Both the position numbers and the translations under genes were made by a program. Below, in pieces: positions 9,853-40,865 of a DNA stretch of 64,000 nt. Source of the DNA: Balanoglossus misakiensis (taxonomy: Eukaryota; Animalia; Hemichordata); the NCBI GenBank assembly GCA_040954595.2, contig CM082579.2:16034550-16098549 (forward strand), read 5' to 3'. The notes beneath the pieces were generated by a model, which saw nothing but the letters and a program-made list of their open reading frames with translations, did no database searches and was not told the origin of the DNA. How positions within the stretch are numbered: the stretch's first letter is position 1; every line of letters starts with the position of its first letter.

Positions 9853-11139
9853 ATGTTACTGGCCCAAAAATTGCAAACTTCATATAGAAACCAAGACACT
9901 GTAGCAAATGATGTCATCCTTCGCTTCAGAGATGGTCAGACGAGAAGGGCCCATTCATTGGTGTTGTGTCTTTTTTCGGATGTGTTTGCCGCCCGTTTGC
10001 ATTCGGAATGGGCCAACGACAAAACCATTGATTGTTCTGACTTTGATCCCTTACTCATGCAAAATGTCATTGATGATTTTTATTTTGAAAAGTTAAATAT
10101 TACAAGTGAAAATGTTGAAGATTATGTGGAGATATGTAACTTTTACATGATAAATTCTTTAAAAGAGAAATGTGAATCATTTTTAATTTCCAACATTGTA
10201 ACTTCCCGCAGTATTAGAGACCTTGTATTTTGTCAGAAATACCAGTTAGATAGTACTTTTGAACACTGTCTGTCAATAATTGATCAGAATGGTGTTAAAC
10301 TGTTTAATTCTGAGCAAGTTTTGGAAGATTTTCTTCAACTTCCTGAAAGCATAGTTGTAAAAATAATTCAGCGTCAGACGCTTTCGGTAAAGGAAGACAC
10401 ACTTTTGAATGCATTGTTTTTATGGGTGGAAAGGAAACTTCAGGGTGTCAATGGCAATGATATGGATGCCCCCTTTTGTTTTGAGCCATTTCTTCCCCAC
10501 ATCCGTTTCTTGTCGTTAAGTGAAGAAAGTATTCATCGACTAATTTCTGAACAAATTTTGTGTTATGAAGATGTCTTCCAGATATTAAAAGCAGTTCGAC
10601 ATCCTGGATGCAATTTTCCTGTTCCTGGTTATGTGGATGTAATCACAAGAAATGTGGTTCTAAATAATGCCATTGTGGCGCGGCGTTTCATCAATGAAAA
10701 AAATCCAAACACATGGAAAGGAAACCAATTTGAGGGTGACAGGATTTCCTTTTCAATGGATGTTCCTGTCTCACTGCTAGGTGTTTATGTGTTTGGAAAT
10801 ACGGATGAAAGTGTCCATGCTCATGTCACAATATTAAATCATCAACAAGCTGTTGTGTACAATACAGAAGCCTCAAACACTTCCCCCCAGATTACCTTTC
10901 CTGTTGTCTTCAGTAAGCTGATTAAAATCCAACCCAATGTAGATTATTCAGTTGTCTGTCAAATCAGAGGAAATAAAGAAACATCATTCGGGTCATGTGG
11001 GATCTCTCGCCGAAGAATCACAACATTAAAAAGTACTGATTTCTGGGTGACATTTAAAAATTTCAGTATGCAAGGTCTGAGCAATGGCACAGATGTCAGT
11101 CAGGGGCAAATCTCATCACTAATATTCTTTGATATATAA
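9853..11139 (+). CDS. BTB/POZ-BACK-PHR domain protein (BTBD1/2/3/6-like), intronless CDS, copy 1
   Basis: BTB motif DVILRF...RAHSLVLCLFSDVF, BACK motif EDTLLNALFLW...LPHIRF, and PHR motif DRISFS...GVYVFG...NGTDVSQGQISSLIF. The likely start is ATG 9853, just after the acceptor ttgcag (9847), giving 428 aa. AATAAA overlaps the stop codon. Confidence 0.88.
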   Translation: MLLAQKLQTSYRNQDTVANDVILRFRDGQTRRAHSLVLCLFSDVFAARLHSEWANDKTIDCSDFDPLLMQNVIDDFYFEKLNITSENVEDYVEICNFYMINSLKEKCESFLISNIVTSRSIRDLVFCQKYQLDSTFEHCLSIIDQNGVKLFNSEQVLEDFLQLPESIVVKIIQRQTLSVKEDTLLNALFLWVERKLQGVNGNDMDAPFCFEPFLPHIRFLSLSEESIHRLISEQILCYEDVFQILKAVRHPGCNFPVPGYVDVITRNVVLNNAIVARRFINEKNPNTWKGNQFEGDRISFSMDVPVSLLGVYVFGNTDESVHAHVTILNHQQAVVYNTEASNTSPQITFPVVFSKLIKIQPNVDYSVVCQIRGNKETSFGSCGISRRRITTLKSTDFWVTFKNFSMQGLSNGTDVSQGQISSLIFFDI

Positions 11140-11250
11140 ATAAAGGTGTTGTTTGGCAGGACATGGTGTATTGGTTTCTGGCACCCATCTTGACTGAAAG
11201 AATTTTGATGAAATCAATTTGTAATTCTTGAGGGATGATATGTGTTTTAC

Positions 11251-12651: not shown

Positions 12652-15385
12652 ACGGGTAGAGATACTTTCCACACGGGTTTCCTAACATTGACTTCCCGTT
12701 CATCAACTCAGATTTCCTACAGCATAAGTCGGCTAAAACCCTGACACTCTAGAGCAGAAACAGTTGCACACTGGAAACGTTGAACAAGTCGATTTTTCTA
12801 CGGCCTGGCTCGGCTAAATCTCCGTCACAATATGACAGACACTAGCGTACGTTAGCAACGGTGATCAAGTCAGATTTTCTACGGCATGGCTTGGATAAAG
12901 CCCCGGCACTCTAGAGCAGAAACACGCGTACAGAGACCACGTTGATCAAGTCTGATCTCCTACGGCTTGGCTCGACTAAAACCCCGGCACACTATGACAG
13001 ACACTAGCGTTCGTTAGCAACGTTGATCAAGTCAGATTTCCTACGGAATGGCCTGGCTAAAGCCCTGGCACTCTAGAGCAGAAACACGCGTACAAAAACC
13101 ACGTTGATCTACTCACATTTCCTTCGGCCTGGCACGGCTGATGCCCAGGCACTATATATAGGACACAGACTGGCGTAAGTTAACAACGGTAATCACGTCG
13201 GGTTTCCTACGGCCTGGCTCAGCTGAAGCCCCGGCGCTCTAGAGCAGAAACAGGCGTACATTGACCACGTTGATCAAGTCAGATTTCCTACGGCGTGACT
13301 CGGCTGGTGCACCGGCTCTATATGACACAGACTGGCGTAAGTTATCAACGGTGATTACGTCGGATTTCCTTCGACCTGGTTTAGCTGAAGCCCCGGCACT
13401 TTAGAGCGGAAACACGCGTACATTGACCACGATGATCAAGTCAGATCTCCTACGGCCTGGCTCGACTAAAACCCCGGCACACCATGACAGACACTAGCGT
13501 TCGTTAGCAACCGTGATCAAGTCGGATTTCCTTCGGCCTGGCTCTGCAAAAGACCCGACACTCTAGTACAAAGACGTTGGCTAAGTCGGGCAAACCGAAC
13601 AGGGAAAGTCACAGCGGGTCAACACTCGACATTTGTTCCGGTAGGACTGCATTATTGCCTGTCAATTTATAGAGAAAGCCCGAATTTAACCAGGGCGTTT
13701 CAAACACCGACGTTAGTTGGGGGCACGGCCTGCAGTACTGCCGGGTAAGCTGACATCAGCGTACCGCATATAATGTAGGGGGGGGGGGGGACAGAACGGT
13801 TAAATACTACATTTATCAGATATCAGCTAATTTTGGACAATCATCTAAAATGTAAATCATCTTTTCATATTTGGATATCTGATGATGTATGACATTTCCA
13901 TTATATGTAAAAATGGTGCTGATTATAAAAATGCACTCTGAATGAGCTGATTTAATGCAAAATTGCGTTTTATTCGTTTTTGCACCAAAAAGGTCATTTT
14001 TAGGCAAAACATTCTTTATTTTTTTAATTCGGTGACCTGATCATATATAAACAATTGCTTGTATGTTAAAAGTTTTTATGACTTTTAAAAGCAGTGACAC
14101 TGGCGGCATTCAACACGAAAATAACAATTTTAGCCACAATTTGGTCAAAATGGTAAATTTTTGAAAATTACAAAAAAATACCTGTTTTCTACATTTTCGG
14201 AAATCTGATGGAGTATAGAATGCTCTTCGTATGTATATATCGATACAAATTCCACAAAAGACCGTCTAATTTGGCTCACTGCAGACAAAATTGCGTTTTA
14301 CAAAATTTTCCTTGAAAATGTCATTTTTAGAAGAAAAAAAATAAAAAAACCTTTTATCTTCGAATTTGGTGCCCTGATCATATATGACATGTTGATTGTA
14401 TGTTAAAACTTTCGACCACTCCAAAAATGCAGAGATATTGACGGAATTCAAGAAATAATAGCCATTTTGGCCATATTTTGACAAAAATGGTAAATTTTTA
14501 AAAAAATCATAAAAAATTAACTCTTTTCTTCATTTTCGGAAATATTATGGAGCATGAAGTGTCGTTCTCTTGTAAAAAGTGCTGCAAATTCCAGAAAAGG
14601 CGGTATAATATGAATCACCCAAGACAAAATTACCATTTTCGAATTTTTTTCGAAAAATTGTCTTTTTTACAAAATAAATAAGAATAAATTCTTTTCTTAG
14701 TTTCAAACGGGTAGAGATACATTCCACAAGGGTTTTCTAACATTGAATTCCCGTGCATCAACTCAGATTTCCTACAGCATAAGTCGGCTAAAACCCTGAG
14801 ACTTTAGAGCAGAAACAGTTGCACACTGGTAACGTTGAACAAGTCGATTTTTCTACGGCCTGGCTCGGCTAAATCTCCGTCACAATATGACAGACACTAT
14901 CGTACGTTAGCAACGGTGATCAAGTCAGATTTTCTACGGCATGGCTTGGATAAAGCCCCGGCACTCTAGAGCAGAAACACGCGTACAGAGACCACGTTGA
15001 TCTACTCACATTTCCTTCGGCCTGACACGGCTGATGCCCCGGCACTATATATAGGACACAGACTGGCGTAAGTTAACAACGGTAATCACGTCGGGTTTCC
15101 TACGGCCTGGCTCAGCTGAAGCCCCGGCGCTCTAGAGCAGAAACAGGCGTACATTGACCACGTTGATCAAGTCAGATTTCCTACGGCGTGACTCGGCTGG
15201 TGCACCGGCTCTATATGACACAGACTGGCGTAAGTTATCAACGATGATTACGTCGGATTTCCTACGGCCTGGTTTAGCTGAAGCCCCGGCACTTTAGAGC
15301 GGAAACACGCGTACATTGACCACGATGATCAAGTCAGATCTCCTACGGCCTGGCTCGACTAAAACCCCGGCACACCATGACAGAC
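12652..15385. repeat. Macrosatellite segment between the two left transposon ends
   Basis: Copy of 5184-7915. Confidence 0.95.
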
Positions 15386-15610
15386 TATGGAAAGCCGTTG
15401 GGGACCCCCGACAACTTCTCTCAATACATGGGTAAAGTCCATAGACAAATGATAGGAACGCATATGCTGAAAATATGACGCACATTGGGTGCCGACGCCG
15501 TAATCTAAAATGCCGGTAACAACCAAATTTTTGCCGACACCTTTACTCAATCTACCGGCGCCGACAAAATCACAACCGGTGATTTGATGAGTTCTCGCAT
15601 CGGCGTTTCT
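15386..15610 (+). repeat. Left TIR (225 bp)
   Basis: Reverse complement of 41081-41305. Confidence 0.95.
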
Positions 15611-15946
15611 ACAGAGTTGTCGCATCGGCGTTTCAGCTAGAGTTTTCTCGCACCGGCATTCTACACATGCGCATTGGCGTTTCAGCTAAAGAGTTTTCTC
15701 GCATCGGCGTTTCTGGAGAGTTTTGTCGCACCGGCATTCTACACATGCGCATTGGCGTTTCAGCTAAAGAGTTTTCTCGCATCGGCGTTTCTGGAGAGTT
15801 TTGTCGCGCCGGCATTCTACACATGCGCATTGGCGTTTCAGCTAAAGAGTTTTCTCGCATCGGCGTTTCTGGAGAGTTTTGTCGCGCCGGCATTCTACAC
15901 ATGCGCATTGGCGTTTCAGCTAAAGAGTTTTCTCGCATCGGCGTTT
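15590..15946. repeat. Left subterminal array (78-bp period)
   Basis: About 4 copies. The same modules appear inverted at 40866-41100. Confidence 0.92.
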
Positions 15947-15954
15947 TCTCTGAT

Positions 15955-16020
15955 TTTCTGAGCATGCGCAGTCACCACTGCAAACAGAACTTGTGGAGCG
16001 AAGTTGTAGTGAAGGTAAGA
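15955..16020 (+). promoter_or_regulatory. Putative inward promoter and non-coding first exon (donor GAAG|GTAAGA at 16014/16015)
   Basis: An NRF1-like GCATGCGCA at 15962-15970 is followed by a consensus donor site. There is a copy at 8544. Confidence 0.45.
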
Positions 16021-17322
16021 ACAGTTATGTTCGTTTGCTAGTCTTTTCCGCTAGTTTCCTGCGAATCCACTGTCTCGTCTGTGTTATCTTTTTTAATTTA
16101 CTGTTTCCTAAACTCTTTTCGTGAACAAATTCTCTGGTTAGTTTACGTATTTCAGCCGATCATCCACAGAGAAAGTTCTCAACTTGAAATGATTGCTATT
16201 GATATGCTAATATGGCGCTCGCACGAAGTTAACTGAATGTCCATTTTGGGTGAGGGTCAGAGTTCGCTGGCTGGCTGTGTGGAAATCTAACTGGTACTCC
16301 TTGGAAAAGTGGCTGCAATTTGTAAACGGACAAGAAATTTTGTTCAGGAATTTAGTTTGGGAACAGAAAATAGTCAGTTCAGGGAGGTATAGGTCATTTT
16401 TTACTGTTCAAATGTTAACCCAAGTTGGGTTCCTGTTGGGAGTCCATAGCTGTTTGTTTTATGAGCCTACAGATAGTGAAACTGATAGTGACACAGCTGA
16501 AAAAACATGGGTTGATTACATTATTGGTTGGTTTCTATGGACACCTGCATTTCAATTAGATGTGGTGTTCTTGTTTTCATGTATAATGTTTGCACCTAAA
16601 GTGGTAAATTTAGGAACAAGTCTGCAGACCTTTTTCAGCAACAGTCAAAACGCAACTGTGTCATAATAATGCACTGGAATATGTTGAAAAGCTGAAAAAA
16701 AGAGAGTTCAACATAATTTAGAAAAGAACAAAAAGAAATGTAACAGATGATATACACTGTCATGGAATCTCCATGAATTTGATTGAACTCTTTATTTGAA
16801 CTTTGACTTTTCTTTCTAATGACATTCATGTAAATTTACATGATTTATTCCGATTTACCAACCAATTTATAAACTGTAATTTTACATTTTTTCACTATAA
16901 TGCCCCAATTTCGACTATGATATTTCACATTTGAATAAGGTATGATAAAATAAACAACTTTTGACAGTTAAGTTTACTACAGAAATTAAAAGAAACTTCA
17001 TCAAGAAGTCGCCAGATTTCATAACCGTTCATAGATTTCTGTCTGGGACAAATATAACCCAATTTGTTTCCATGTTTATTTGTTTTTCTAGTTTTGATGC
17101 AATAAGCCTGTTGTATATGTAATACTTGTCTGTGCAATTTTTGAGAACAATTAGAATTTCCTACCAAAATGGTAATAAACTGATAAAATGAACAATCTAA
17201 CAATTCAGATATTTTCCAATATAATTAGGATACAGTTAGGCCCTGAGCTATTCAGTTTGTGTCGATATACAACTAAACTGATACAATACTGGTGTTATAC
17301 CTTTGTTACACTTGCAGACATC

Positions 17323-18609
17323 ATGTTACTGGCCCAAAAATTGCAAACTTCATATAGAAACCAAGACACTGTAGCAAATGATGTCATCCTTCGCTTCAGA
17401 GATGGTCAGACGAGAAGGGCCCATTCATTGGTGTTGTGTCTTTTTTCGGATGTGTTTGCCGCCCGTTTGCATTCGGAATGGGCCAACGACAAAACCATTG
17501 ATTGTTCTGACTTTGATCCCTTACTCATGCAAAATGTCATTGATGATTTTTATTTTGAAAAGTTAAATATTACAAGTGAAAATGTTGAAGATTATGTGGA
17601 GATATGTAACTTTTACATGATAAATTCTTTAAAAGAGAAATGTGAATCATTTTTAATTTCCAACATTGTAACTTCCCGCAGTATTAGAGACCTTGTATTT
17701 TGTCAGAAATACCAGTTAGATAGTACTTTTGAACACTGTCTGTCAATAATTGATCAGAATGGTGTTAAACTGTTTAATTCTGAGCAAGTTTTGGAAGATT
17801 TTCTTCAACTTCCTGAAAGCATAGTTGTAAAAATAATTCAGCGTCAGACGCTTTCGGTAAAGGAAGACACACTTTTGAATGCATTGTTTTTATGGGTGGA
17901 AAGGAAACTTCAGGGTGTCAATGGCAATGATATGGATGCCCCCTTTTGTTTTGAGCCATTTCTTCCCCACATCCGTTTCTTGTCGTTAAGTGAAGAAAGT
18001 ATTCATCGACTAATTTCTGAACAAATTTTGTGTTATGAAGATGTCTTCCAGATATTAAAAGCAGTTCGACATCCTGGATGCAATTTTCCTGTTCCTGGTT
18101 ATGTGGATGTAATCACAAGAAATGTGGTTCTAAATAATGCCATTGTGGCGCGGCGTTTCATCAATGAAAAAAATCCAAACACATGGAAAGGAAACCAATT
18201 TGAGGGTGACAGGATTTCCTTTTCAATGGATGTTCCTGTCTCACTGCTAGGTGTTTATGTGTTTGGAAATACGGATGAAAGTGTCCATGCTCATGTCACA
18301 ATATTAAATCATCAACAAGCTGTTGTGTACAATACAGAAGCCTCAAACACTTCCCCCCAGATTACCTTTCCTGTTGTCTTCAGTAAGCTGATTAAAATCC
18401 AACCCAATGTAGATTATTCAGTTGTCTGTCAAATCAGAGGAAATAAAGAAACATCATTCGGGTCATGTGGGATCTCTCGCCGAAGAATCACAACATTAAA
18501 AAGTACTGATTTCTGGGTGACATTTAAAAATTTCAGTATGCAAGGTCTGAGCAATGGCACAGATGTCAGTCAGGGGCAAATCTCATCACTAATATTCTTT
18601 GATATATAA
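17323..18609 (+). CDS. BTB/POZ-BACK-PHR domain protein (BTBD1/2/3/6-like), intronless CDS, copy 2
   Basis: Same protein as copy 1. Acceptor ttgcag at 17317, ATG at 17323, and TAA overlapping AATAAA. Confidence 0.88.
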   Translation: MLLAQKLQTSYRNQDTVANDVILRFRDGQTRRAHSLVLCLFSDVFAARLHSEWANDKTIDCSDFDPLLMQNVIDDFYFEKLNITSENVEDYVEICNFYMINSLKEKCESFLISNIVTSRSIRDLVFCQKYQLDSTFEHCLSIIDQNGVKLFNSEQVLEDFLQLPESIVVKIIQRQTLSVKEDTLLNALFLWVERKLQGVNGNDMDAPFCFEPFLPHIRFLSLSEESIHRLISEQILCYEDVFQILKAVRHPGCNFPVPGYVDVITRNVVLNNAIVARRFINEKNPNTWKGNQFEGDRISFSMDVPVSLLGVYVFGNTDESVHAHVTILNHQQAVVYNTEASNTSPQITFPVVFSKLIKIQPNVDYSVVCQIRGNKETSFGSCGISRRRITTLKSTDFWVTFKNFSMQGLSNGTDVSQGQISSLIFFDI

Positions 18610-20426
18610 ATAAAGGTGTTGTTTGGCAGGACATGGTGTATTGGTTTCTGGCACCCATCTTGACTGAAAGAATTTTGATGAAATCAATTTGTAATTCTTG
18701 AGGGATGATATGTGTTTTACCAGGTCCCATTTGGTATATGCATATATACCATTGGAACCTTATGGGATTGGTTGCGTCTGTAATAGTATTTATCAGAAAT
18801 TTCATTTGAGGGTGTGCATCAGATGTAGTTTCCTTGATTTTGTTTTTCAAATCAAGGGGAAGAAATCAATTGTATATTTTTGGGATGATTTAGGACATTC
18901 TTGGTCAACAAATATTTCTCAAAAGCCTCTACCCTGATTGCTTTGAAATTTGCAGACCCTTTAATGAAAGTGTAGATTTCGTATTCTTGTGGCTGTTTTT
19001 TCCATTTTTGGCACAAAAATCAATTTCTCTGAAACGGGTTGTCCATCCAATTGCTTTGCAATTTACTAAATGTAGTTTCCTTTGGGGATTGTTATTATGA
19101 TATATCAAAATTATAGTGAAAATGAAAATCTTGTATTTTTGTATTATGTTTTCTAGGTTTCCATGTATTAGTTGATATCAGAAAGTTTTCAATTGATTTC
19201 TGTAAAATTTGAGTTGTGAGTCAACGGGATGTGCTCCTTTATAATTATAATGGGATCAAATCAAAGTAAAATTTGAATTGTTGTATTTTATGACATTTTG
19301 TCTTATACATTTACCACAATTTTTTTTATCTCAAGCAGAAAAATATCCTGAACATTGTTCTTTGCAAGTTAGATGAAATCCCCTAATGAGTTTTTTTACA
19401 CAGAAAATGTCTACATGTTTATATAACTTAGCCCATCTGTCAAGAGACAGTTCTATTTGCTGTTCTATTTGGTGTGTGCACAGTACACATGCCATTGGCA
19501 GCTCACGAGTCAGTCAATGGCCAGTCAGTGTTTGCCTGTTGATCTGTGTGTGTGTATTCTGGTGAAAACCTTTCCTTCCGTAATCCTTAAACGGGACCAC
19601 ACTGTCCTTGACGGTATTTTTCTCTTTGATTCTGAAATTGTCATGATAATTCCAGGCCCTTACACTATAGGCACTTTGCAAATGTTAGCAGCTGAGTTAT
19701 CGAACCCTATCAAAATACCTAAACTGTTTCTTTTGCTACTTACAACATATGTCTGTGACAAATACTGCTTCATCATTTTATTATATAAATGCTCAATTGC
19801 AACACTGATTTGAGAGAAATGTATCTTGGCTTATTTTATAGTTCTGTAAATAATTTCCAAGTACATGTAGTACTGTTGACAAAATTTGATTAACTACTGC
19901 TTTATACTGTCATGGGCACCAACTCCGTCAATTATATGTGATTGAACTGCCAGTATGAACTCTCATAAACCGCCACATTTCCACTCCACTATGACCAATT
20001 GATCTGAGTGAAACGGCGTCGCAATGAAATTTGGACTGTCATAAGCCACATATCACATGTAAGCAATATGGATGATTTCAATGCTTCTTTATGCTTTGTA
20101 TTGTGTAAAGCTCTGTTGTGTCAGCTAGTTTCTGGTTTGAGTCTAGTCATGGATTTCATTGTCAATACATGATGCGATTGCTGTTATCATAGAAAATAGA
20201 GTTCAAGTCAACAACAGCCTTTAAACATATGCATACTGTGTCTTCTAGCAGAATACTTGGTGTATAAAAGCACTTTTGACAACTTGTATGGCATTTATAT
20301 TCTACTGGGTGTATCAACTAATAGTTTGTTCTATTGGCGGCAGCATGTAGAAATGTTCAGTGTTGCCAGTAGGAGATGAGGTACAACAGATAGTTATTTT
20401 ATGTTATGCTTTTAATATCATTTCAG

Positions 20427-23400
20427 ATGTATAAGAGAAAAGAAGACCTGACCAAAGGTAAATGTGAAATGTACTGTAAATGTAGGAAGATACTTTTTCC
20501 CTTGGAAATTTTGCACTCGTCAATTTGGATAATTCACAAAAATTGTTTTCTAGAATTCGTATTTTTCAGCACAGTTGCTTTCTCACTTGATGCCTATGGA
20601 ATATCCAACTCATTGAAAAAAGTGCAAGTGTTCAAACAATTTAAGTAACACTTAATGTTTTTTATCCCTTGAAAGAGAGTCAAGAAGCATTGGGGCGACT
20701 AGCCGAACAGTTTCAGATGAAAGAGGCTGAAGTAAAATCAAAGAGACTGAAGCGATCTGTTCCAAAGCCACCAGAACAACAGGTAGGAATTGCAATCCAA
20801 ATGATACATACATGAAGAAAGATAAGAACTGCCTTTCTTGAAGTATTTTGGGAAGTTTTTAGTCCCCCCCCCCCACCACTAACCTTTTTGTATTTTGTCT
20901 ACACTTTTGTTTTCTTTCCATTCTACACCCAATAGCATGATGAATTGCCCAGTACATGTATTTAATTTCTCATCATCTAATTTACAGACAAGGTAAACAT
21001 TCTAGACACTGGTAATTTCATCATGCTTTAGGGAATAGAATAGAAGTGTAGAGTATACATACACAGGAAAGTATAGACCAAGGTTATGTACAGTTCAGCC
21101 TTTAAGCATTATACGTAATTGCTAGGAGTTATAACACATGTTTTCTTCATATCCATGCAATGTACAAGTCTTTTCCTTGTTAGTTATTTCCTGATTTTAT
21201 GAAAATTTAAGTTTATATTCATGCCATTTTACATACATTTATTAAAATTTTGATGTTTACCCTATTTTGTAACATTTTCATTCAGGTGTTTAATGTTACA
21301 CCACTGATAAAAGACAGTAAAGGAGTTCTAAAGAAAATGGGGGCAGTACTACCATCAGCTGTCGGCAGAAAAAGTCAGGTGGCCATTACCGTGGACAGTG
21401 GCTCAAATGCCATGCACTGGGCCCAGAGTGTATCGGCACACTTCATCGACGTGGATTTTGTACCTTATGAGATGAATGACATAGGAGTGTTCATAAGGAT
21501 GAAGGACCCAATGAATTTCCAATTAAAAGATCTGAAGGCAAAATACAAAAGTATGAAGGCGAAGACAGACAAGTTGCCAGTCTTCATGTTTGCAGTTGGG
21601 CAGAGTGAGTAAATCATGTCTATTTACATTGTCACAAGTTGTGTCAAGTATTTAACTGGATAAATTGAAAGGTTGTTTTTTTTCTTTGTGCCCGTTTCGT
21701 GTTGGATTATCCAGGTTAAAAAGTCATGGTAGTTTTTTATTATTCACTTGCTTCTTTTTAAACAAAAACAGACAAAAATAGAAGTGGCAGAACTTGTTTT
21801 GTTGGAAGAAAAGCGCCATTTCTGTCATTGTCACATGACTGGGCAGACCCCATTATCCAGTGGGTATCATTGGCATGGTGGACTTTATGGTTGGTATATT
21901 CATGCTATCATGCAATTATGCAAAGCCTGGCATGAACATAACAAATTCAACAAATGCCATTTTAGACATGTATTTGCAAAATTGCAGGATAGTGGTACCT
22001 GTCTGGTCATGTGACAATGGCCCAAGTATGGGCACTTTTATTCCAACAATGCTACCTCCAAGTTCCACCACTTTGATTGTGTAAGTGCACAGGTGCATTA
22101 TACTTGATTAACTTGATTATCTGACTCAAAGGTTGCACTAAAAAAGTTTCAGCCTTGTCTATCAGTGACCCCTTAAGGCAAAGTCTCTCTCTGCTTCTTG
22201 CTGCTTTTTTACATTAATTATGTTTGATACAAGATATTGTTTGTGTTATTAGGTCCCATTGGTATAGGCCTATATACCATGGGACCTTATGGGATGGGTT
22301 GTGTCTGTATGGATGTATGTATGTATGTCTGTATGTCCGTCCACATCAAAAACTTGAAAAACCGCTGCGCGTATCACCTTGATATTTGGTGTGCAGATGC
22401 AGGCAGGGCTGTAGATGGGAGTTTGTCCAAACGAAGTTGCCAGGCCCAAAAATATGCAAATTAGCCAGTAAAATGTGAAATTTATCAAAACTCTGAAAGT
22501 CAACAACTACTGCTCAGATTGCTTTAAAAATTGGTATGCATGTACCTTATGTCAACCTCACATCGACCTGTAAGTGTTAAGTTAATATCATGGATGTTTT
22601 ATTTTTTATGAATTTTTTAGTCTTTTTATTAAATTTATACCTTTACTTATACCTCTATGGTTAAGCTATGTCCACGTCTTATTGTGGAGTTCTGGTCTGT
22701 GCAATAGTCCTGTACAGTGACTGTCTATTGGTCAGTGAGCACAATGGGGCCAAAATAAAAGGCAAATTTTTGGGCTCACCTGTAACACCTGCTTAACACA
22801 TTAATTATGTGCATACCTAATTCCAGGCTAACCAATAAGGCTATAGGTTTGGTTTTTATTGAACATGGACCAGTATAAGGTCAAAATTTCTTGCCCAAAT
22901 TTTGCATGACCTCAGGTGACCTTTGACCTACTTTATCATATCTTGGCATCCAGAGCAGGTAGAGACTTCGCGTTTGGAGGGTTGGGACTAAAATTGAAAA
23001 GCCAAAATTGGGGGTCACCTGTGACACTTGCATATCTCATTAATTATGTGCATACCTAATTCCAGGCTAACCAATAGGGCTATAGGTTTGGTTTTTGTTG
23101 AACATGGACCAGTATAGGGTCAACATTTTATGCCCAAATTTTGCATGACCTCAGGTGACCTTTGACCTACTTTTCCATATCTTGGCATCCAGAGCAGATG
23201 TGCTTATTGCTATGTTGCTATGTTTTTACATGTAGACATACAGCGAATCAACATTCGACCACACACAACTTCCATTTCACTTGTATGATGATATGAGAAT
23301 AAAAACTCGCCCCAAATGAAAAAATGGTAGAGGAATATTATTCATTTTGGCGATGTTTTTTCACTCATGTCTTCAAGCCGAATGGAAGGTGTGTGTGGTT

Positions 23401-26400
23401 GAACGTTGATTCACTATATATCCACACATATAATAACATAAACGGTGTCTTGTATCAAACATAATTAATGGAAAAGGGGCAGCAAGAGAGAGACATTGTC
23501 CCTTTAATGACCTATTTTCCAGAGTAAATCTGTCCTTTTGTTATGTGTAGTCCCAGGTTAGAACTATGGTTTGTAGTTTCATTGCCAAAGGTTTAAGGAT
23601 CCTCCTACGAGAACATCTGGTCTTTGTATAGTCAACATTGAGAAATGATTTTAGTATGGACTAAAACTCAGTAGTAAATAATTAACAGTTTCTTTATGCA
23701 TATGTGAGCTATGCTGATGTGCTTATCAATTTTCAGGGCATTTCTGTATTGTGTATTTTTTTTTTGTATTCCACAGCAAAACATTCTTTGAAAGCATCCT
23801 TTGTTAAAAAGAAGCTGCAACTGCAAGACAAAGAGTTCGAGCAGCAAGAGGAACCTGAACAAGAACAAGAAATGGTCAAGGTATAATGGCATGAATATTT
23901 TAACATGTGAAATTTAGTCTGCCAGTGATGTCATGGTTTGTAATACAGTGTGGCATACAGTATCTACTGGCGATGAATTGAAATCTTGACATTTCAACAA
24001 AATTTATGGGGAACAAAAAATATAGTTTAAGCACAAAACAGCAACATTTTACAAAATCATAATTACAGCCAGATAGATATTTCATTTTTTTATTTTCTGT
24101 TATAGGGTACTGACAATGAAAAGTTAGTGTCCTGTGATCCTGTGTCCTGTGATCCTGTGTCCTGTGATGGTGTCAATGAAGATGTAGAAGTGATTGCGGT
24201 TGAAAATTCTGTTGACATAACAGTGGTGGAGGAGGTGGCAGCTTCATGTGAGGAATCCATGAAAGAATGTACTGCTGAACAGGCATTGAATTCAGAACAG
24301 GTTAGACATGATTAAGGTGGCACTGCATGAAACCGTCGAGACTTTTTCAGAGGCCTATTTCTCATCAAAGAAAAAGTTAAAACCCCCATAAACCATATAT
24401 ATTCTGGAAGCTGAGATTTTGAACTTTTGTTTGAGTTGCAAATATTATTGATCCCCGGAAATGGTGGCGATTTTGGGTGAAAAAAAACATTTTTTTGATA
24501 TTATGTCATGAAATTTAAAATAGGTAAAACAGTTGACCATGCATCATGCATCTTAATATGTCATTCAAAACTAGAGTACACGTGCAAAAAAACGCTAATT
24601 TTGTTTTGCGTTATCTGCTTCCATTGAGGAGTAACAGCGTTTAAAAGTTAGATTTTCAGAAAATTTGATCAAATTCACGGTGAGTTGTATTGAATCAGAG
24701 TTTATTCCCGCCAGGGACACTTTATCGACAAACAAAACTAGCGTTTTGTTGGATGGGTCATACACAATTCCCTGTCAAAATTTGAGCAAATTCGGCCAAC
24801 GCAGGGCGAAGCTATTTTAGTCCGAAGTTGTCAAGAGCAGCGAAAATGCAAACTGAGAAAAACGGCTATTTGCATTGTTGACACCTATTTGTTAAGCTGT
24901 GAACTCATTCAGAAAAGTGCTATTTTGGGGTGATTATGCACCATTTCCGCCAAGACGTATTAGTCAGGTTGTGGGTCAGTATTAGGCCTACCGATTTATG
25001 TAAAAAAGTAAAATTTGGCAAAAATCACAACTTTTCATGCAATGCCACCTTAATTAACTACTATAAATGATGGAGCAGGTTCTCCGAATAAATATTCGAA
25101 TGATCAGGCACTTCTAGTCAATACCAATTGTATTTATTGGCAAAATGTCTATTCTGCTACAGTAATACCTGTCGAAACTGAACACCAAAGTGACTGAAGA
25201 AATTATTCCATTTGCAAAGGTGTCTGGTTTATAGGGGTTCTTTTAACATGTGGTTCCATGTCAAAGGGACAGGAACATGTGTTCAATATAGATAGGTTTC
25301 AAGATTAGACAGGTTTTACTGCTGCATGAGGAAATATGGGGACAGTCAGAGCAGATATGATGGAAAATAACTCTGACTGGTATTTGCAAAGGTGTTGAAA
25401 GATTATGGAATGACTCTTAAACAAATGGGGCTTTCACATGTGATGTTTAGGCCGCCCCTGGGGGATATTGATTAGTCTAAGGTATTAAATGGTATCAATA
25501 TTAACGTTACAGGAAAGAGAGAAACAAGCTCAAAGGAAATTGCAGAGGAAAGATGTAAGTTTAGTCGAATTTTGATTCTGAGTCATACATTTGACTGGAT
25601 TGGTTATACTCCTACACCAAAGTGACAGTTTGGGCAATGATGTTAATACTGGATTGAAACGTGTTGATTGTCTTTGTAGTTTTTGATAAATTCTTCATTT
25701 TTACATTTATAGGATAGTTTTTGATAAATTGTTAATTTTTAGGTCCAATGTCTAAAAATTTAAAGCTCAGAGGTGCATTCTACTAAATGTTTGTTTTGTA
25801 CTTTCTCATCCACATACCTATTTCACGTTAGGCAAGGCAATCTCTTCCCTAGGAACCAGTTAGTCAGTGAATTGTCTGCTCAGGTTATGACACTCAATGT
25901 GTTTATTTCTTTACAGGCAGCACAGGCCAGAGCCGAAAATATAAGATTGCCCTTGATTAACGAAAGGAAAAGACAAATCTGCATCATGGTGAACGATGAG
26001 GTCCTGGAAAGGCCATTCAGAGACCTAGATACACTCAAAGTAAGTCAAGATATGGGCCATCAAGTGTAAATTGTGTGTTTCATGTTCACTGTTCAAATAC
26101 AGTCCGTTGCAGCCTTACAATGTAAGGCATTTCTGAGTGTAACTGCAGTCATACCAAAATAAAGAAACCAAGGTTTGGATTAATCATCATATTCTAGCAT
26201 TATAATTGTAAACATAAAAGAATCTATTTGCTTTGCAGGATGTCTTTGATTGGATTTGCGGTACAGTTGATTCAGAAGATCTTCCTTGCAGATTTTTTCT
26301 GCAATGTTTCGATCCTCCCAACTGTGTTGATTTTCAGTGTCAGCATGAATACCATGCCACAGCTGAGGCTGACTTCCTTTTAGTAGAATATCTACCAGAA

Positions 26401-26770
26401 ATGATGCTAGTGAAAGAGGTAATTTAATAATTTTAAATTTTTTTGATGATATTTGCATATTTCGGTGTTTGCCAATTTTGAGAGATTGATCAACTGTCTT
26501 TTTTAGCAGTTTTATACTGAAAATCGAGTTGTCCAAAAATGCACAACATTCTTCAGTCTCGTGAAACAGAATCCAAATGTTCACATAGTACAGCTATTCT
26601 GATTACCAAGTTTTATTTCGCATCACAAAATGTCAGTACATACACATGAATATGATAAACAATGTTTTTTAATGCATGAAATCACTTTTTTATTTGTTCA
26701 ACAGATTAGTGGTGACCTGGATGACACCCTAACAAACTATGATGATGTTCTTCTGTGTGGGCTGTTTTGA
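20427..26770 (+). CDS. Spliced cargo gene, 9 coding exons, 388 aa, with an acidic/coiled-coil middle and a putative C-terminal UBX/ubiquitin-like domain
   Basis: Exons 20427-20457, 20676-20782, 21286-21604, 23777-23880, 24106-24300, 25513-25554, 25917-26039, 26239-26418 and 26705-26770. All introns are GT-AG and phase-compatible, giving 1167 nt from ATG to TGA. The segment ICIMVNDEVLERPFRDLDTLKDVFDWIC resembles the UBX core; this domain call is tentative. Confidence 0.75.
22249..22640 (+). mobile_element. HINE/DINE-1-like non-autonomous element in an intron; 3' end approximate
   Basis: aggtccca-hairpin-tgggacct followed by a (GTAT/GTCY)n microsatellite at 22302-22342. Confidence 0.5.
22776..23197. 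repeat. Two ~183-bp direct repeats (period ~239 bp)
   Basis: tcacctgt...attaattatgtgcatacctaattccaggctaaccaata...cttggcatccagagcag at ~22776-22958 and ~23015-23197. Confidence 0.85.
23219..23440. mobile_element. Degenerate palindromic MITE
   Basis: gaatcaacattcgaccacacacaacttccatt pairs imperfectly with aatggaaggtgtgtgtggttgaacgttgattc. Confidence 0.7.
24316..25049. mobile_element. Non-autonomous TTAA-targeting DNA transposon (Kolobok-like, GG..CC termini), 734 bp
   Basis: TTAA|GGTGGCACTGCATGAAA ... TTTCATGCAATGCCACC|TTAA: a 17-bp TIR with 1 mismatch and a TTAA TSD. Confidence 0.8.
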
Positions 26771-26797
26771 ACTGTACTTGTGAACATTTTTTTTTAC

Positions 26798-26998
26798 TAG
26801 GGGACCATTCAGTTTTTACGGCGGGAGGTAGGTAGGGGGAGTCGGCAAAATCAAGGGGGTGTCACTTAAATTTGGAAATTCAAAAGGGGGGTCATCATTT
26901 TTTGGTCCCGTGTAAAGGGAATGGGGGGGGGGGTCTGCCTGTTTTTGAAAACAGATGACACAAACTTGCCCCAAGCCATGAAAACTGAACGGCTTCTA
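26798..26998. mobile_element. Small degenerate MITE between the convergent 3' ends
   Basis: The left end taggggaccattcagtttttacgg resembles the reverse complement of the right end, tagaagccgttcagttttcatgg. Confidence 0.5.
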
Positions 26999-27037
26999 AA
27001 GTATTAGCTGTTGTATTGTTCTCTTTAGTTGTGTAGT

Positions 27038-30000
27038 TTAGAAAAGTTCTTCAAGGCAAGGTGTCAAGTGCAAGTAGAGTTCTTTTGCTGCAAATGCTGT
27101 AGTGGGTTCATGATTCCATCCATTCATTTGGCATATGTTCCGTGCCACAACTGCGAAATCTTCATTGCAACCATTATTAAAGTTACACTGTGACTTGCAT
27201 AGCAAGAAAGTTTGAGAGCCAGCGTTGACTGAATGTATGTAGTTCCGACAATTAGGGCGGTCTGAAATAACAAAATATGTTTGTTCAAATAAGAATTTAT
27301 GTATGGGTTAAATACTATGAGGGTATTACGAAAATACTGCAAAGTATGCTCAAGGACATTAGCGCCACGTATCGCCTGATGCGTAGCGGAGGGCGATGCA
27401 CTATGCTAATGTCCAAATATATACTTTGTGGTATTTTCATAATAAAATTATTATTGTACATCTTACATCTCAGTTAGTTCTTGTGTTGCATATTATTTGG
27501 CTTTCAAAACGCTGGTACGATCAACCATAACCGATCAGCTGAAACACAGTACACAGTGAGCAGCCATCTTTCTTTTTTGTTTATATTGGAGTATCTATTG
27601 TTCTTGGTGCCAGATGTATATTAAGTTATTTTATTTTATTTACCTTAAGCAATGAAGTGATTGAAATGTTATTTTTCTATCATTCTCTGCAGATGTTATG
27701 TAATCTTGAGATTTTTGTTGAGGAAACTTTCCAATGTTCATGATTTATGCTTTAAACACTGCATGTCATTTACTTCATGGATAAGCCTTATGTTGACCTA
27801 ATGAGTGAAATACCCACATGACTTGTGATCTACATTCAGTCACAGGGTCCAGATTAGGTAGCATTTCTGCAATTTTAATGAATCTTTGTTGGTTTCTTTA
27901 TTTTGTTGCAATAAAAAAGTACCTAGTAACTCAGGACAGGTATAGAGAATTTCTGGAATGCCTGATACAGAATCTCCTTTATTTTGTCGCCTTATTCTGT
28001 GGTGGTTCCACCTCTCAACTACCTCATCCAGTTCCCTTTGCATGACAGAAAAATAACAAAACTGCATACTCATTCTGAAAGAAAAAATGCAAATTGATTT
28101 CAAGATGCTTGGGAATAATATGTGCATTTTATCATACTTAACAAATAGCATAATGTTACAAGTTTATGGAAATTCATCCAGTTAAAAATATGATTTCCAG
28201 CAGATCTACGGATTTCAAATGAACTGCAATATTTGATCTCCTGTCTATGTCTCTACCATCCTGTCTGTGTCTGTTTCTTCTCTGCTCTGTGCAAACATTG
28301 ACAGATTGAATAATGGAATTTCTTTCATTACTTGAAACAAAACATAAAGTGTATCAACTCACATGTTGACCGGGTCACCTAACTGCAAATGACCCATTGA
28401 TACCAAATCCTAGGGGATAAAAAATTGATAGTGGTGAATTTCCTGTAATGCTACAGTAAAATGTGTCAGTGAATGTGGTCTTGTACTTGTGTATAAACTG
28501 CCTGCAAGGCCATGGCCAGGAAAAAAAATGTTTGGAAAGCCTAGTCCTCATGTATAAAAACTCTGCAGGACAATTCAACATCATGATATGAACTGACTTG
28601 AGCTATACTGGTTATTTTTCTCATTCCTACACACAACTGCATCCACTAATGACATTGCATCTTGGGCTGTGGCACATTCTATGAGAATACAAATTTTGTC
28701 ACTTATACAACCATCTTTGTGTTTGAGTTGATTTTGTTTTGCAGAACACATTTGTACAAGCCAAATGATACTTTACCTTAAATGGTCAATCCACCAATCT
28801 GCACTTTTACTTCTTAACACACCCCACCATCGTTCAATACGCTGTAAGAAGAGATCACAATGAAAACAATGGTCTGACACAATTACTGTCACCACTCTGA
28901 ACAAACAAATGTGAAACACGATACCAAAAGTGTCTTTTTTGGATTATATTGTGAAACAAAAAACTGCACCAAATTTGAACAAAATTTGCTCAGGCATGCA
29001 GCAGCAATGGAATCGGTGACTGAAGTAGGGAAGATGGGGAGTCTATGAGGTTTGAGGATAGTCTCCTCAAGCATATAGTCATCTTAACAAGGTAGTGGAA
29101 AAATGGGTAGTATTAACAGTCTTTTTATCTCATGACACGGTACAGCGTAGGTATTCCTAAGAAAAATTGTGATGCCATTTGTCATATGTGGATAGAGGGC
29201 GCTGCGCATGCATGGTCGACAAGTTCAGCAACATCGTCTCTTGGTACGAGCCAAAAATCACTCCTTAGTTGGAACTTTTTTTCATCACCGGTCAATGTGT
29301 CGATTTTTGAAGGCGTGGACTATTAGCTGGCAACGGATTTTTGCGGAAGATTGCTGTAACTTTTTGTCAAAAGTGAGTTTTGATTTTTATCTATCAAGTC
29401 GAAGCCAGCACACAGAATCCTGCCGTTAGTTCCAGTCGATCTCATTATGCATGCAAAATAGTACTGGAATTCTGCTCCTTTGTTTAAAACCCACGTTGTG
29501 TAATCGAACACCTGTGCTCATTCACGATGCCGAGAAGAAAAGACCAAACACCATCTGGATCATCAGACTCTTGCCAATCAACACCTCCAGCTGGCACACC
29601 ACAATCAATAGAAAACCGGCTTGCTGAAATCTGTTCACATGTAAATCACATACCGGCACTATTGATCAGTATTGCTGAGCTCAAAGAAAGCCAAAGCACA
29701 ATACATTCGTCACTGGAGTTCTTCAACGGACTTGTAGAGGAAGTACGTGGACGAGTTTCTACTTTGGAGCTTGAAAATAAAGAAGTCAAAGAAACGAATG
29801 CACAGCTTTTCACTCGCATCACAGAGCTCGAGAAATCTATGGAAAGTATGAATCAATACAATAGACGTGAAAACATTGAACTTCATGGAATTCCTGAAAG
29901 TGCAGATGATGGAGAAAATACAGATGCAATCGTAACAAGAGTGCTAAAAAAGATCGATCCAGGTATCAGTGACCACGACATTGTGATTACCCACAGATTA

Positions 30001-33000
30001 GGTCAAAAGCATACAGGTGACAATGCTGCACCTACTTTCCCAAGACCAATCATTGTGCGATTCTTAAGCAGGAAGAAACGCGACTATATCCACCGGAACA
30101 AAAAGAAGCTAGCGACCATTACAACTGGAGATATTGGATATGCCAATCGGAACAAAATCTACGTAAATGAAAATCTAACTCCAAAAGCACGCAAACTTTT
30201 TAAGATGACGAACGTGAAGCGCAAATCAGCACGCTATAAGTATGCGTGGACGCGGAACGGTGAAGTTCTTGTGAAGAAAAGTGAGCAGTCACCTGTACTA
30301 GTGATAAGGAATGAGCTGGACCTTGCCAAGATTGTATAAACCATCTTGTAGACATTTTCTTGGTTTCCCATATATTGCTTCATGCCAAACTCAGTAAATG
30401 ACATAGATGATGACATTTTCACAGTTACAAATCATATACTGGAACCGTCAACATTTAATGATAAATTTAGCTCTAGATCCAGCCATTCTTTCTCAGTATC
30501 TCATATTAATGCAAGATCTCTCTGTAATAGTATAGACGATGTACGTCTCCTGTATAATGAATGTATCACCAGTCCTTTTCACATTATTGGTGTTTCAGAA
30601 ACCTGGCAAATCAATAATCAAACTTTTTTTAATTTGCCAAATTACTCTTTTGAGTTAAATAGCAGAAACATCGGTCGGGGTGGCGGGGTAGGGGCATATA
30701 TTCATTGTTCTCTTAAATACAAACTGTTAAACTTTAATGTGGTTCATTCTGAATCACTATGGTTTGAAATATGCGGGTTAAAGAATCGCATAGTTGTCGG
30801 TGTGTTATATCGCAAACCAGGAACTAGTGTCACAGAGTTTGAAGACAGTCTTTTTAATGTTCTTTGTTCTTTGAAACTGGATAAAAAACATTGTATTCTT
30901 ATGGGTGACTTTAATATTGATGTGTCAAGTCCAGATTCAAGTGCTCGGGATTTTATACCAAGGATGCAATGTCTTCATCTAGAACAGTTAATCTCCTCCC
31001 CAACTCGTATTACAAGTACTTCCAAGTCGACCATTGATCATATTTATTCCAATATTAGCTCTTGTCACATTGATGCTGGTACAATTATTGCTGATATTTC
31101 AGATCACTTACCTATTTTCTCTATTTTCAACAACTTCAATGTCCACACGCCATTTGTACGGTCAGTTTGTACAAGGAATTTCAGGCGCTATAACTCTGCT
31201 CGTTTTATTTCTGATTTAATTAATGTTAACTGGAACGTTGTTATGCATAACAATAGCTGTGTAAACACTGCTTTTGACACCTTCAGCAATTTGTTCAGCC
31301 AGGTGTGTGACCATCATGCCCCACTTGAGGTTAAAACTATTAAGGCCAAGTGTAACAAAAATCCCTGGATTACCAAAGCTATTAAGAAGTCAATTCGCAC
31401 CAAACGCAAACTATATGCTAAAGTTGTCACCACACAACATGAACCAAGTGCTGTTGCTCGCTACACAACCTACAGAAATATTCTTACAAGTGTTTTAAGA
31501 AAAGCCAAAAGGGTGTATTATGCTAATTTATTCACTGTAAACAACAATGGTAAAGTGTGGAATGTTGTAAATGAGTTGCTTGGTAAAAACACTACTTTAG
31601 ATAAAGCACCAGATCAGTTAAAGGTCAATGTAAATGGGATTGAAAGGTTGGTAGATAAGCCAGCTGATATGGCTAAGTGTTTTAATGACTTCTTTGTACA
31701 TGTGGGTCAAAATCTGGCAAAACACATTCCAAAAACCACAAAAGATTTTAAAAATTATATGAATGATCCTATGCCAAACTCTTTTTTTCTCCATCCTGTT
31801 ACGGTTGCTGAGATAAAAGAGATTTTGGTGCATCTTGACAGTAAAAAGGCCAGTGGGTGGGATAATATTCCTCCAAGACTCCTAATTGATGCAGCTGATG
31901 TTATTGCTCAACCTTTGACCCACATCATAAATATGTCTTTCTGTACCGGTGTCTTCCCTAATTCCTTAAAAGTCGCTAAGGTTAAACCTATCTTCAAGAA
32001 AGGAGAACAGAACATTGCTGGGAACTACAGACCCATCGCCATTTTATCAATGTTCAGTAAAGTGATAGAAAAAGTGGTAAACAAACAAGTGATTACTTAC
32101 CTTGATAAATATAATATATTATATAAGCACCAGTATGGCTTTAGAAAGAACCATAGCACCAAGCACACTTTGATTAACTTAGTTAACCACTTGTTAAAAG
32201 AAATTGATAAGGGGAATTCCACACTGGGGGTGTTTATTGACTTCAGCAAAGCTTTCGATACCATTCACCATGCCACTTTATTGTCCAAGCTTGAACATTA
32301 CGGGTTTAGGGGCCCCTGCCAGCATTGGTTTAACAGCTACCTCACAGACCGCTCACAGTATGTCACATTAACCAGTCATGTTTCAGAAAAGTCCTTGATC
32401 CACAATGGAGTCCCACAGGGATCAGTTTTGGGCCCAACCCTTTTCCTTATTTATATCAATGACCTTCCAAATTCTTCTACATTTTTTTATTTCCGTTTAT
32501 TTGCTGACGACTCCAATCTCTTCCATTCCTTCTCAGGTGCAGATAGTATTAACTTGACTCATATATCCTCTTATTTAAATGATGTTCAGCAATGGTGCAA
32601 TGCCAACAAACTAACAATTAATAGGGCCAAGACTCACTTTATTATTTTTAGGGGTCGGCAGAAAAAACTTAATGTTCTTGGGTCATTGCAAATCCAGAAT
32701 GAAGAAATCAAAGAGGTTGATGTGATACCATTTGTTGGGGTTTTATTGGATAAGCATCTGTCATGGTCACATCAAATTAACAAAATAAATAATCTCATTA
32801 GGAAGCACTGTGGAATTTTATACAAGATTAGAAATATTTTACCACTCCATATCAGAATTTTGTATTACAACGCCTTCATACTCCCCCATGTTACATATGG
32901 TCTTGAGGTTTGGGGCAATACTTACCCCACAAAGTTACGTTGTATCCAAGTTGCCCAAAAAACAATTGTACGTATAATGCTTTTCAAATCACACATGGAC

Positions 33001-36000: not shown

Positions 36001-38320
36001 TGGTTTGATTTGCTGTGGACGTATTGCGGTATGTTGTTGGGTTTCGTGTAGGGCTGGTATTTTCCGGTGGTTAGGTTCAGGGTGGTGTCGAGAAAGTTCA
36101 CAATTTTTTTGTTGGCTTCGATTGTGATTTTCAGTCCATATTGGTTGAAGATGGCGCAGAGGTCTTTCTTTTTGCGTTCCACTTGTCGTGCTGACGCCTT
36201 GATTATACCGAGGCCGTCGTCCCTGTATAGGCCAAATTGGTTGCCGTGTTTTTTGGTGATCTCGTGGAGTATGAATGTGCCGACAAGCTCGCATGTTTCG
36301 GCGCCATCGTAGCTCCCCATGGTTACGTCAAATAGGTTGGATGATGATTTTTTCGTCCATTGTTCATTTTCGTTGAAGAGGCATGATCTCTTGGCATGGG
36401 TGATAATTTCTTTTTCGTCATTGGTGATATTATCATGGTTGGATGCAAATTCCAGCGCTGTGTTGAGCAGGTCGGCCGAGATGGATGGGTAAAAGTCTAC
36501 CACATCGAATGCAATGAATGAATATTGGTGCTTGTTGGGGATGCTATTAAACCATTTTAGGACTGCTTTGGTGCTCTTCCATTGGTTGAGACCTGTCTTT
36601 GTGATGACTTTCTTGTTGATTCTGTCTAGTATTTGTTTGCTGATTTTTCCGATTTCTGATTTTGCTGGGTTGATGAGACGGCATGTAGGCTTGTTTTTGA
36701 AGTTGGGCTTATGGTCTTTCAGGGTTATGAATGCTTCCCTTTTGGCTGTGGTGTTGATTCTGTCACCAAGGTCTAGTTTTGCTGCAATGTGGGCGGCGTC
36801 GGTTTCGATCATTTTGGTGGTTTCCGGGGGGACCTTCTTATATGACTTAGTAATGTTCTTGCTTAGTAAGGTATTGTAGGAAGGGGGGTCCATCTTGTAA
36901 AAGTTGTTGGATTTGTCTGCTGGTGCGAGGAGGTCCTGGGATTTCTTGATTTTGCTAACATCTGATGCTAGTTGTCTTTGGAAGCGGCAGTTAATATTTT
37001 GAAATTTTATGTTTTCGATCATGTTCAGCAGCCTGCCTTCAAAGCTTACCAATTCTTGAATTTGCGGTGGTGTCTTTTTTTAGTTGAATCCGTATGTTTC
37101 TTTGTTTATGGCACGTGTTTCTGGGTTTAGAAAGAAGTAGGCTTTCCATCTCATGCGTCTGCATAGGTGCTCGGTTTTTTCTATCAGTTTCCTGTTGTAC
37201 TCACGTTCTGATGGTAGTCCGATGTTCTTCGTTGAATAGTCAAAACTTCTGGGTTCCATGACAGTGGTATTTGCGAAGAGTGCTCGACACAAAGGAGCGT
37301 AGTAATACGATTTGGGAGTTCGTTGCACGACGAATGCTTCAACACGGCCGCACCACTATACCAACAGGCCATCTACAAAAGCGGATACAAACATGAACTG
37401 AAATTCACGCCGCCAACAGAACAACCACAAGCCCACAAGAGAAACCGCAGCAGGAACATAATATGGTACACCCCACCGTACAGTAAAAACGTCGCCACAC
37501 ATATAGGGAGAGAGTTCCTCAAAATAATTAACGAAGAATTCCCACCAAGCCACACCCTCCACAAGATATTCAACCGGAACACAGTAAAAATAAGCTACAG
37601 CACCATGAGCAACACAGCACAAACCATCCAGAATCACAACAAATCGGTACTTTCCAGCAACAACGACAACAGCACTAAAAAACAATGCAACTGCCGGTCA
37701 CCTGCAAACTGCCCAATGTCAGGACACTGCCTGACCGAATCAATTGTATACCAAGCCACCGTTACTACGCAGGATAGCAAGCCAGACCAAACCTACGTCG
37801 GACTAACTGCCAACACCTTCAAGACCCGCTTCAACAACCACAAGGACTCATTCAGGAACGCCGCCAAAAAGAACAGTACAGAACTCAGTAAATACATTTG
37901 GAAACTAAAGGACGAGCACATAGAACACAAAATCACATGGAAAACAATAAAACAAGCTAGCCCCTATACCCCCACCAGCAAGAGATGCAACCTATGTCTT
38001 TGGGAAAAATATTTCATCATATGCAAACCAAAACTAGCCACACTCAACAAACGTAACGAACTCGTCAGCACATGCCGCCACTCCAGCAAATTCCTCCTGA
38101 AGAATCTGGCCAATCAGCACCCCTCCACACAGCCCCAATCAATACACACTCCCATTCAAATGTAGGCCCATTTGCATATCCACCCTACCCAATTCCCTGT
38201 TGTCCACACCCTTCACCATCATTCAGGCATCAGTATCTGACGAGTGTAGGCCCCGCTTACACGAAACTGAACAGTAATACACCGCCTATGTCAAAACAGC
38301 CTTAGTTCCCTTGCACACTC

Positions 38321-38418
<98 letters not shown>

Positions 38419-40570: not shown

Positions 40571-40865
40571 CAGCAACAGTTGCCTTGGAGTAGCATGTTG
40601 ATCTTATGCGCATGCTCTGTACGAACATCGGTTGACCACATGATAACAAACGTAAAAATTATAATTTGCTAATAACAATAATTTATTTAAAATATCTAAG
40701 CCTATAACGTTGAAAGACTTTTAGCTCAGTGTTCTAACAAATGCATGGGAGACCTAGCAGCAGTTCAGCATCTCGAGATTTTGCCTTGTGATTTACTCTT
40801 TGACTACAAAACCTTAACTAAAGAGGAGACCGAGAAGAAAAGGCCGCTGTCCAAAATCGCCGACA

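Follow-up and report, generated by a model that had tools for sequence, protein, structure and literature searches.

A whole BTB-BACK-PHR gene carried by an IS3EU/GingerRoot transposon of Balanoglossus misakiensis

Introduction

How does a gene with an uninterrupted coding region for a BTB-BACK-PHR (BBP) protein come to lie inside a transposon whose other genes are rich in introns, and what might it do for that transposon? The question is raised by a locus of the hemichordate Balanoglossus misakiensis, which we analysed within a stretch of 64,000 nucleotides, here called the window. An earlier note on this DNA had read the gene as an old, divergent host gene that was retro-captured and kept intact, and had connected it with topoisomerase I and with the expansions of such genes in invertebrates.

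IS3EU/GingerRoot transposons are described as having TAYGG..CCRTA ends, a 6-bp TSD, an IS3-like DDE transposase and a second gene in the opposite orientation; in rust fungi, an alpha-kinase gene and a captured TET/JBP gene lie between these two genes (PMC10045372, PMC12730594, PMC6839031, PMC11934779). Beyond their ends and transposase, IS3EU elements have been little studied (PMC11934779).

Results

The gene lies within an IS3EU/GingerRoot element

The BTB gene lies 1.9 kb inside an element that spans positions 15386..41305 (25.9 kb with nested insertions), as delimited by ends, TIRs, TSD and gene models. The termini read TATGG..CCATA, which fits TAYGG..CCRTA; the left TIR with 27/78-bp subterminal repeats lies at 15386..15946 (+ strand) and the right TIR with its subterminal repeats at 40862..41305 (− strand). 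The TIRs are perfect over 225 bp and 97% identical over about 275 nt, and they enclose the BTB gene. A 6-bp TSD, ACAGAC, stands at 15380..15385 on the left and at 41306-41311 on the right (+ strand). The element interrupts one unit of a tandem array of ~2-kb repeats, and the other units of the array show the empty insertion site. With its TA..TA ends, 6-bp TSD and DDE transposase, the element belongs to IS3EU/GingerRoot, whose defining traits match those seen here (PMC10045372, PMC12730594, PMC6839031).

The exon structures of the two other genes are our own models, drawn from the sequence. The DDE transposase gene (27038..40561, − strand) has 12 predicted exons encoding 397 aa and contains the D, D and E motifs. 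In the window, the reading frame slips by one base at the junction of exons 9 and 10 (28777/28409), and no better exon 10 was found. One transposase exon matches Pfam rva_4 at E 0.001-0.002, below the cut-off; the model is 44-47% identical to two rva_4 loci that pass it. The second gene (20427..26770, + strand) is convergent with the transposase gene and ends about 270 bp from its stop. It has about 10 predicted exons, of which the early ones are approximate in phase, and its first coding exon begins at an acceptor. Pfam, a word search, Atlas and PDB gave no family for this gene, and its single-sequence fold reached a pLDDT of 41. The middle of its product is acidic and coiled-coil-like, and the C-terminal part is what we take, by eye, to be UBX-like. 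These models, with the TIRs and TSD, bear out the earlier placement of the BTB gene in a transposon with intron-rich genes.

The element has itself received insertions. A LINE at about 29400-33400 (+ strand) lies antisense in transposase intron 8, with an open ORF1 (Baculo_FP_2nd match) and a 993-aa endonuclease-RT frame; no clear TSD was found for it. In intron 5, an insertion at 34950-38326 has 1-kb inverted terminal repeats of 98.6% identity and a broken RT frame, and ends at a (TA)46 run; it gave no Pfam match and is presumably a Penelope-like element. A 738-bp TTAA-flanked insertion with inverted ends (24312-25049), a younger non-autonomous element, is skipped in the contigs of sequencing runs X1 and X2.

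The host array fills positions 1-7915, 12652-15385 and 41306-64000 of the window. Its units measure about 1.9-2.2 kb and contain an 81-bp subrepeat 7-11 times each, and the array was also seen in sequencing runs of a second organism code. Rfam and tRNA gene scans of the window found no match, which means that the array is no small-RNA cluster of a known kind. Positions 5184-12651 and 12652-20121 form a direct duplication of 7.47 kb (99.96% identical, with one substitution and a 2-base homopolymer difference) that contains an identical second BTB-BACK-PHR coding sequence at 9853..11139 (+ strand) and also copies the left TIR (7916). It joins element DNA (the equivalent of 20121) to array DNA without microhomology. 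The junction is not among the contigs listed, and the duplication may be real or a product of assembly.

A complete BTB-BACK-PHR coding exon with flanking signals

The earlier description of an uninterrupted coding sequence holds. A single open frame at 17323-18609 (+ strand) encodes 428 aa followed by a stop, and Pfam finds BTB at 18-114 (E 2.9e-15), BACK at 125-197 (E 3.5e-7) and PHR at 278-425 (E 1.3e-19), all over the cut-off. This BBP domain order is also that of an AlphaFold model built with a 93-row alignment (mean pLDDT 92). The BTB-BACK part of the model matches the folds of KBTBD2, KLHL11 and vaccinia A55, and the top fold matches are Cul3-bound adaptors. The PHR domain superposes on that of BTBD2 (3no8) with a TM of 0.86 of the target and an rmsd of 2.0. 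The best PDB sequence match is A55 (6i2m, E 1.1e-9).

The signals around the frame are also as had been noted. Upstream, the DNA reads CACTTGCAG, then ACATC, then ATG, which places the AG of a predicted splice acceptor (17298..17317, + strand) 5 nt before the start codon. A predicted polyadenylation signal, AATAAA (18609..18614, + strand), begins on the last base of the TAA stop and is the sole A[AT]TAAA within 18590-20400. Against an element background of 0.75 AATAAA and 2.6 acceptors of this kind per kb, each signal is modest alone; their joint placement by chance is unlikely. An acceptor so close to the ATG points to an intron in the 5′ UTR, which the gene probably has; the term intronless is right for the coding region and not for the whole gene.

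A candidate for the missing exon lies at the left end. CpG-rich DNA in the element is restricted to its two ends, and GAGCATGCGCA, which we take to be an NRF1-like motif, occurs at 15960 and 40607, at both ends 44-58 nt 5′ of a consensus donor. At one end, this pair is the transposase first exon. At the other, the left end, GAGCATGCGCA lies on the inner margin of the CpG-rich DNA and is followed by the donor AAG/GTAAGA, together forming a predicted non-coding first exon at 15960..16014 (+ strand). No strict-consensus donor lies between the BTB stop and the first coding exon of the second gene. The subterminal repeats carry ACATGCGCA words related to GAGCATGCGCA.

We also considered whether the gene is a nested insertion of its own, and rejected this. 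No TSD-like repeat flanks the coding sequence (the longest shared flank words are 10 nt and lie far from it), no run of six or more A follows the AATAAA, consistent with the earlier report that a poly-A remnant is lacking, and the gene has no boundaries of its own.

The protein belongs to a small divergent clade

A HMMER search over 1.84 billion representatives (E 0.001) gave 1405 matches, from which the best 150 were fetched. The closest relative is 34% identical to the window protein, which agrees with its being called old and divergent. Trees with 123, 52 and 27 rows all place the protein in a divergent clade of 410-440-aa proteins, with a Saccoglossus protein as its sister (support 83-92); a clade of 10 rows has support 100. 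AU tests on the 27-row tree, an LG+G4 quick tree with a simple model and long branches, rejected a grouping with BTBD1/2/3/6 (p 1.3e-6) and with two other expanded sets (p 2e-6 and 2e-7), one of which we label cnidarian as a guess from an Atlas result. The window protein shares the domain order and fold of human BTBD1/2/3/6 (PMC1257465, PMC3002306), as had been proposed, but it forms a separate clade, lacks their N-terminal extension and lacks the acid of the Cul3 motif. Identity to named BTBD2- and BTBD6-type proteins is 23-34% per domain, and that of the PHR domain to BTBD1/2/3/6 is 31-34%. We therefore rejected orthology to BTBD1/2 or BTBD3/6, from which the protein is separate in all trees. 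The suggested link to topoisomerase I falls with it, as this link concerns BTBD1/2 and depends on two TOP1 residues (PMC3002306, PMC1257465) and the protein lies outside that group; topoisomerase I is thus rejected as a partner.

Among 14 clade clusters examined, six bear names: Saccoglossus, Mytilus, Mactra, Saccostrea (two) and one bacterial MAG, the last on animal-like contig DNA. Records of clade relatives include XP_063420426, XP_063418098 and XP_063419651 from Mytilus trossulus, XP_061193793, XP_061192815, XP_061167708 and XP_061167522 from Saccostrea echinata, and CAC5415446, KAL4219198 and XP_006820798. Mytilus trossulus has three near-identical copies (99.8% and 92%) on scaffolds of 113, 104 and 0.7 Mb, and Saccostrea echinata has two pairs (98.5% and 94%) on different scaffolds, each pair with a shortened member. 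Such copies are expected of mobile genes, and they could also be haplotigs or segmental duplicates. One relative, L001, is a single exon whose ATG lies 14 nt after an acceptor. In the 6.6 kb available around L001, a stretch too short to decide on carriage, we found ordinary repeats but no transposase, no match to the second gene and no TIR partner. A near-identical partial copy of the BTB region of L001 lies at 2486-2747, 120 bp downstream of its stop.

Further searches added little to the clade. With the protein as query, a word-based search retained none of its 3583 candidates, and with alignment A1 it gave two matches; one of these, P0173, was among 15 rows first assigned to the clade and was removed when it fell outside in the tree. 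A JGI scan returned a single locus, L002, which lies on a contig of 2.3 kb and is a paralogue from outside the clade. Scans of viral contigs found no clade locus, and prokaryote genome sets of 380 and 401 held no further one.

Sequencing contigs suggest variant copies and decay

Of five sequencing runs, X1 and X2 are DNA of one sample and cover most of the stretch; X4 and X5 matched only the array and short repeats. In X1, a single unbroken contig with a depth of 683 covers 17123-20079 and joins the BTB gene to element DNA. Its depth resembles that of the transposase exons (692), the second-gene contigs (685-740) and the LINE (677 and 764). As contig depth is not copy number, we used it only to see whether depth is even across the element and whether minor forms occur. 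A contig joint of 17103 to 29479 that depends on 21 letters was left out.

On the BTB coding sequence, no second X1 contig was found at 90% identity or above, and at 80% the bin depth was 685. With no other X1 contig at 80-90%, no close host parent shows, and the lack of a parent at 80% or above means that the capture was not recent.

Minor forms occur in X1 at depths of 37-103, and some contigs contain a 310-bp segment (16591-16900) that others of similar depth lack, so that both forms coexist. Together with the skipped 738-bp insertion, these forms indicate that several copies of the element probably exist in the sample, although a pooled sample may also account for them. The BTB gene is thus not confined to one copy, as both the identical coding sequence at 9853-11139 and the contig variants show. 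Among the contigs listed, at least two in X1 and at least one in X2 run off the TIR. The one in X2 has the same array junction as the window, and the consensus of those in X1 suggests one other flank. The few flanks and the equal depth of the LINE hint that the array and most copies were amplified together. The copies now present in this species look for the most part like offspring of a single insertion that multiplied with the array, and they are decaying.

The claim that the gene was kept intact is weakened: the frame is open in the window, but the predominant contig version of runs X1 and X2 has a TGA stop at codon 10. This version differs from the window at four coding positions (one stop, two missense, one silent) and has a valine at codon 302, in agreement with relatives. 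That three of the four differences alter the protein is the expectation under neutral drift and speaks against retention of the BTB gene.

Discussion

Where the coding exon came from

In the earlier reading, an ancient reverse transcript of a host BTB-PHR gene with introns was inserted in intron 1 of the element, and an acceptor was acquired or recruited afterwards. This has some appeal: the coding region is intronless among intron-rich genes, AATAAA stands at the very end of its frame, and an intact LINE in the same element shows that reverse transcriptase was at hand in the lineage. However, neither a poly-A remnant nor a TSD surrounds the gene (age can erase both), the X1 contigs show no parent at 80% or above, and the trees do not derive the gene from BTBD1/2/3/6. 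Single-exon frames moreover seem not to be peculiar to this element. Five of ten non-clade BTB-PHR clusters examined are full-length single-frame calls from ENA/JGI assemblies, and two of the five stand on long contigs (37 kb to 1 Mb); P0017, a paralogue outside the clade, is single-frame and full-length on an 89-kb contig. If these calls are unspliced, as we infer, coding regions of one exon seem to be frequent in expanded BBP genes, and the absence of introns does not by itself point to retro-capture by the element. As the distant L001 shares the acceptor before the ATG, this anatomy predates the element or the clade split. The non-clade paralogues and L001 suggest that the introns had gone before capture, and we consider retro-capture improbable. 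Intron loss from the coding region would be ancient, dating from before its time in the element or from the first part of that time, and would not reflect a recent retro-capture.

A stronger contender, though still rather unlikely in our judgement, is that the element took up an already single-exon host paralogue of the clade at the DNA level, as a one-off passenger of no benefit that is open only because the insertion is young. GingerRoot elements do acquire pieces of host genes at the DNA level, though the captures published are fragments and not whole genes (PMC6839031). In favour of a passenger, full-length single-frame paralogues from outside the clade occur on long contigs, L001 has the same anatomy without signs of a transposon in 6.6 kb, and the main contig version has the stop at codon 10. 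Yet the X1 contigs hold no host parent at 80% or above while frame, acceptor and polyadenylation signal are whole in the window, and the gene faces away from the left end, its sole CpG promoter candidate.

A possible Cullin-3 adaptor in place of HECT

The reading that we prefer, with moderate confidence, is that a whole BTB-BACK-PHR gene from an old side branch of the family serves the element as cargo, likely as a Cul3 substrate adaptor that gives it the ubiquitin-ligase activity that related elements get from HECT. Transcription would start in the CpG-rich left end and run through the non-coding first exon (donor at 16014), which would be spliced to 17318. The BTB exon would lie in intron 1 of the second gene and act as an alternative last exon, so that the left-end exon could be joined either to it or onward to the second gene. 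The BTB-BACK part would bind Cul3 and the PHR domain would pick the substrate, most likely the transposase of the element itself or a host silencing factor. The BTB gene would thereby fill the role of the HECT gene, as a swap of ligase type.

The predicted Cul3-binding face appears partly kept. In an alignment with A55 (residues from PMC6484134), W53 stands at F54, a hydrophobic position, A47 at I48 and N96 at D99, where 10 of 13 clade relatives have D; helices at 117-129 and 133-145 of the model follow the BTB core. The acid of the phi-X-D/E motif is replaced by N55; E occupies this position in 46 of the 93 alignment rows and in none of the 13 clade relatives, so that it appears to be missing clade-wide. 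This loss would suit a decoy that blunts host control of the element, either by forming dimers with host BTB proteins or by occupying Cul3 or a substrate without ubiquitination, as would the recruitment by Btbd6 through BTB heterodimers (10.1101/575910). The top fold matches to Cul3-bound adaptors are those of the adaptor reading, and we regard a decoy as very improbable.

The swap also depends on what related elements carry. No HECT domain was found in 146 of the 176 frames of at least 40 aa in the element, nor by Pfam in four more frames, a search that shorter exons would escape. HECT as the usual partner of IS3EU is represented here by one locus, contig G001:C1180 at 16800-28836 (L007, L008), where an IS3EU-type transposase gene faces a convergent multi-exon HECT gene; the second gene of the window element does not match this HECT partner region. 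C1180 is animal-like DNA that contaminates a 9-Mb bacterial MAG, which has three rva_4 and five HECT matches.

Comparison with known systems

The window element resembles the IS3EU/GingerRoot elements described in its ends, 6-bp TSD, DDE transposase and opposite second gene, and differs from them in its cargo, a whole BTB-BACK-PHR gene by the left end, with no HECT or kinase found. It shares with Zisupton transposons, in which an F-box within a transposon protein isoform serves Cul1 (cited in PMC12062965), that a DNA transposon encodes a (predicted) cullin-ligase adaptor domain; unlike that F-box, the window protein is a free-standing predicted adaptor for Cul3 in another transposon superfamily. 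A parallel in protein type is the poxvirus BTB-BACK-Kelch protein A55 (PMC6484134), likewise a divergent BTB-BACK protein of a mobile element. The window protein, however, has PHR in place of Kelch, its carrier is a transposon, and its role as a Cul3 adaptor is a prediction.

Lineage-specific extra BBP genes are also known in deep-sea snails, where the BTBD6-like expansions are tandem clusters (PMC7736800). The set with a Gigantopelta member is nevertheless apart from the window protein (AU p 2e-7). The proposal that transposon carriage could help explain invertebrate expansions is not supported for the large ones, in view of the two AU rejections and the tandem arrangement in snails, and we reject the BTB cargo as the source of those BTBD6-like sets, which are other clades. 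Carriage could explain only the small divergent clade.

In the literature searched, including 10.1101/2021.09.26.461848 and PMC12062965, we found no report of a transposon with a BTB-PHR gene, and the main text of PMC6839031 makes no mention of BTB; Repbase or supplements may list such a gene. The locus is a real case of a transposon from a known superfamily with an entire gene as cargo, and we did not find cargo of this type in print.

Conclusions

It is possible, though we lean somewhat against it, that the entire divergent clade is a transposon gene family, carried on IS3EU across hemichordates, including Balanoglossus misakiensis, and molluscs for hundreds of millions of years, with a Cullin-3 adaptor replacing HECT. 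If so, some genes annotated as BTBD or kelch-like in bivalves and acorn worms would be transposon genes. A predicted Cul3 adaptor in an element with no detectable HECT offers a natural swap test of ubiquitin ligation as a working part of a transposon, and a small, foldable, single-exon protein is a handle for finding its substrate. If the clade does ride IS3EU, such transposons would need a ubiquitin ligase of any type, and would hijack host Cul3 as poxviruses do.
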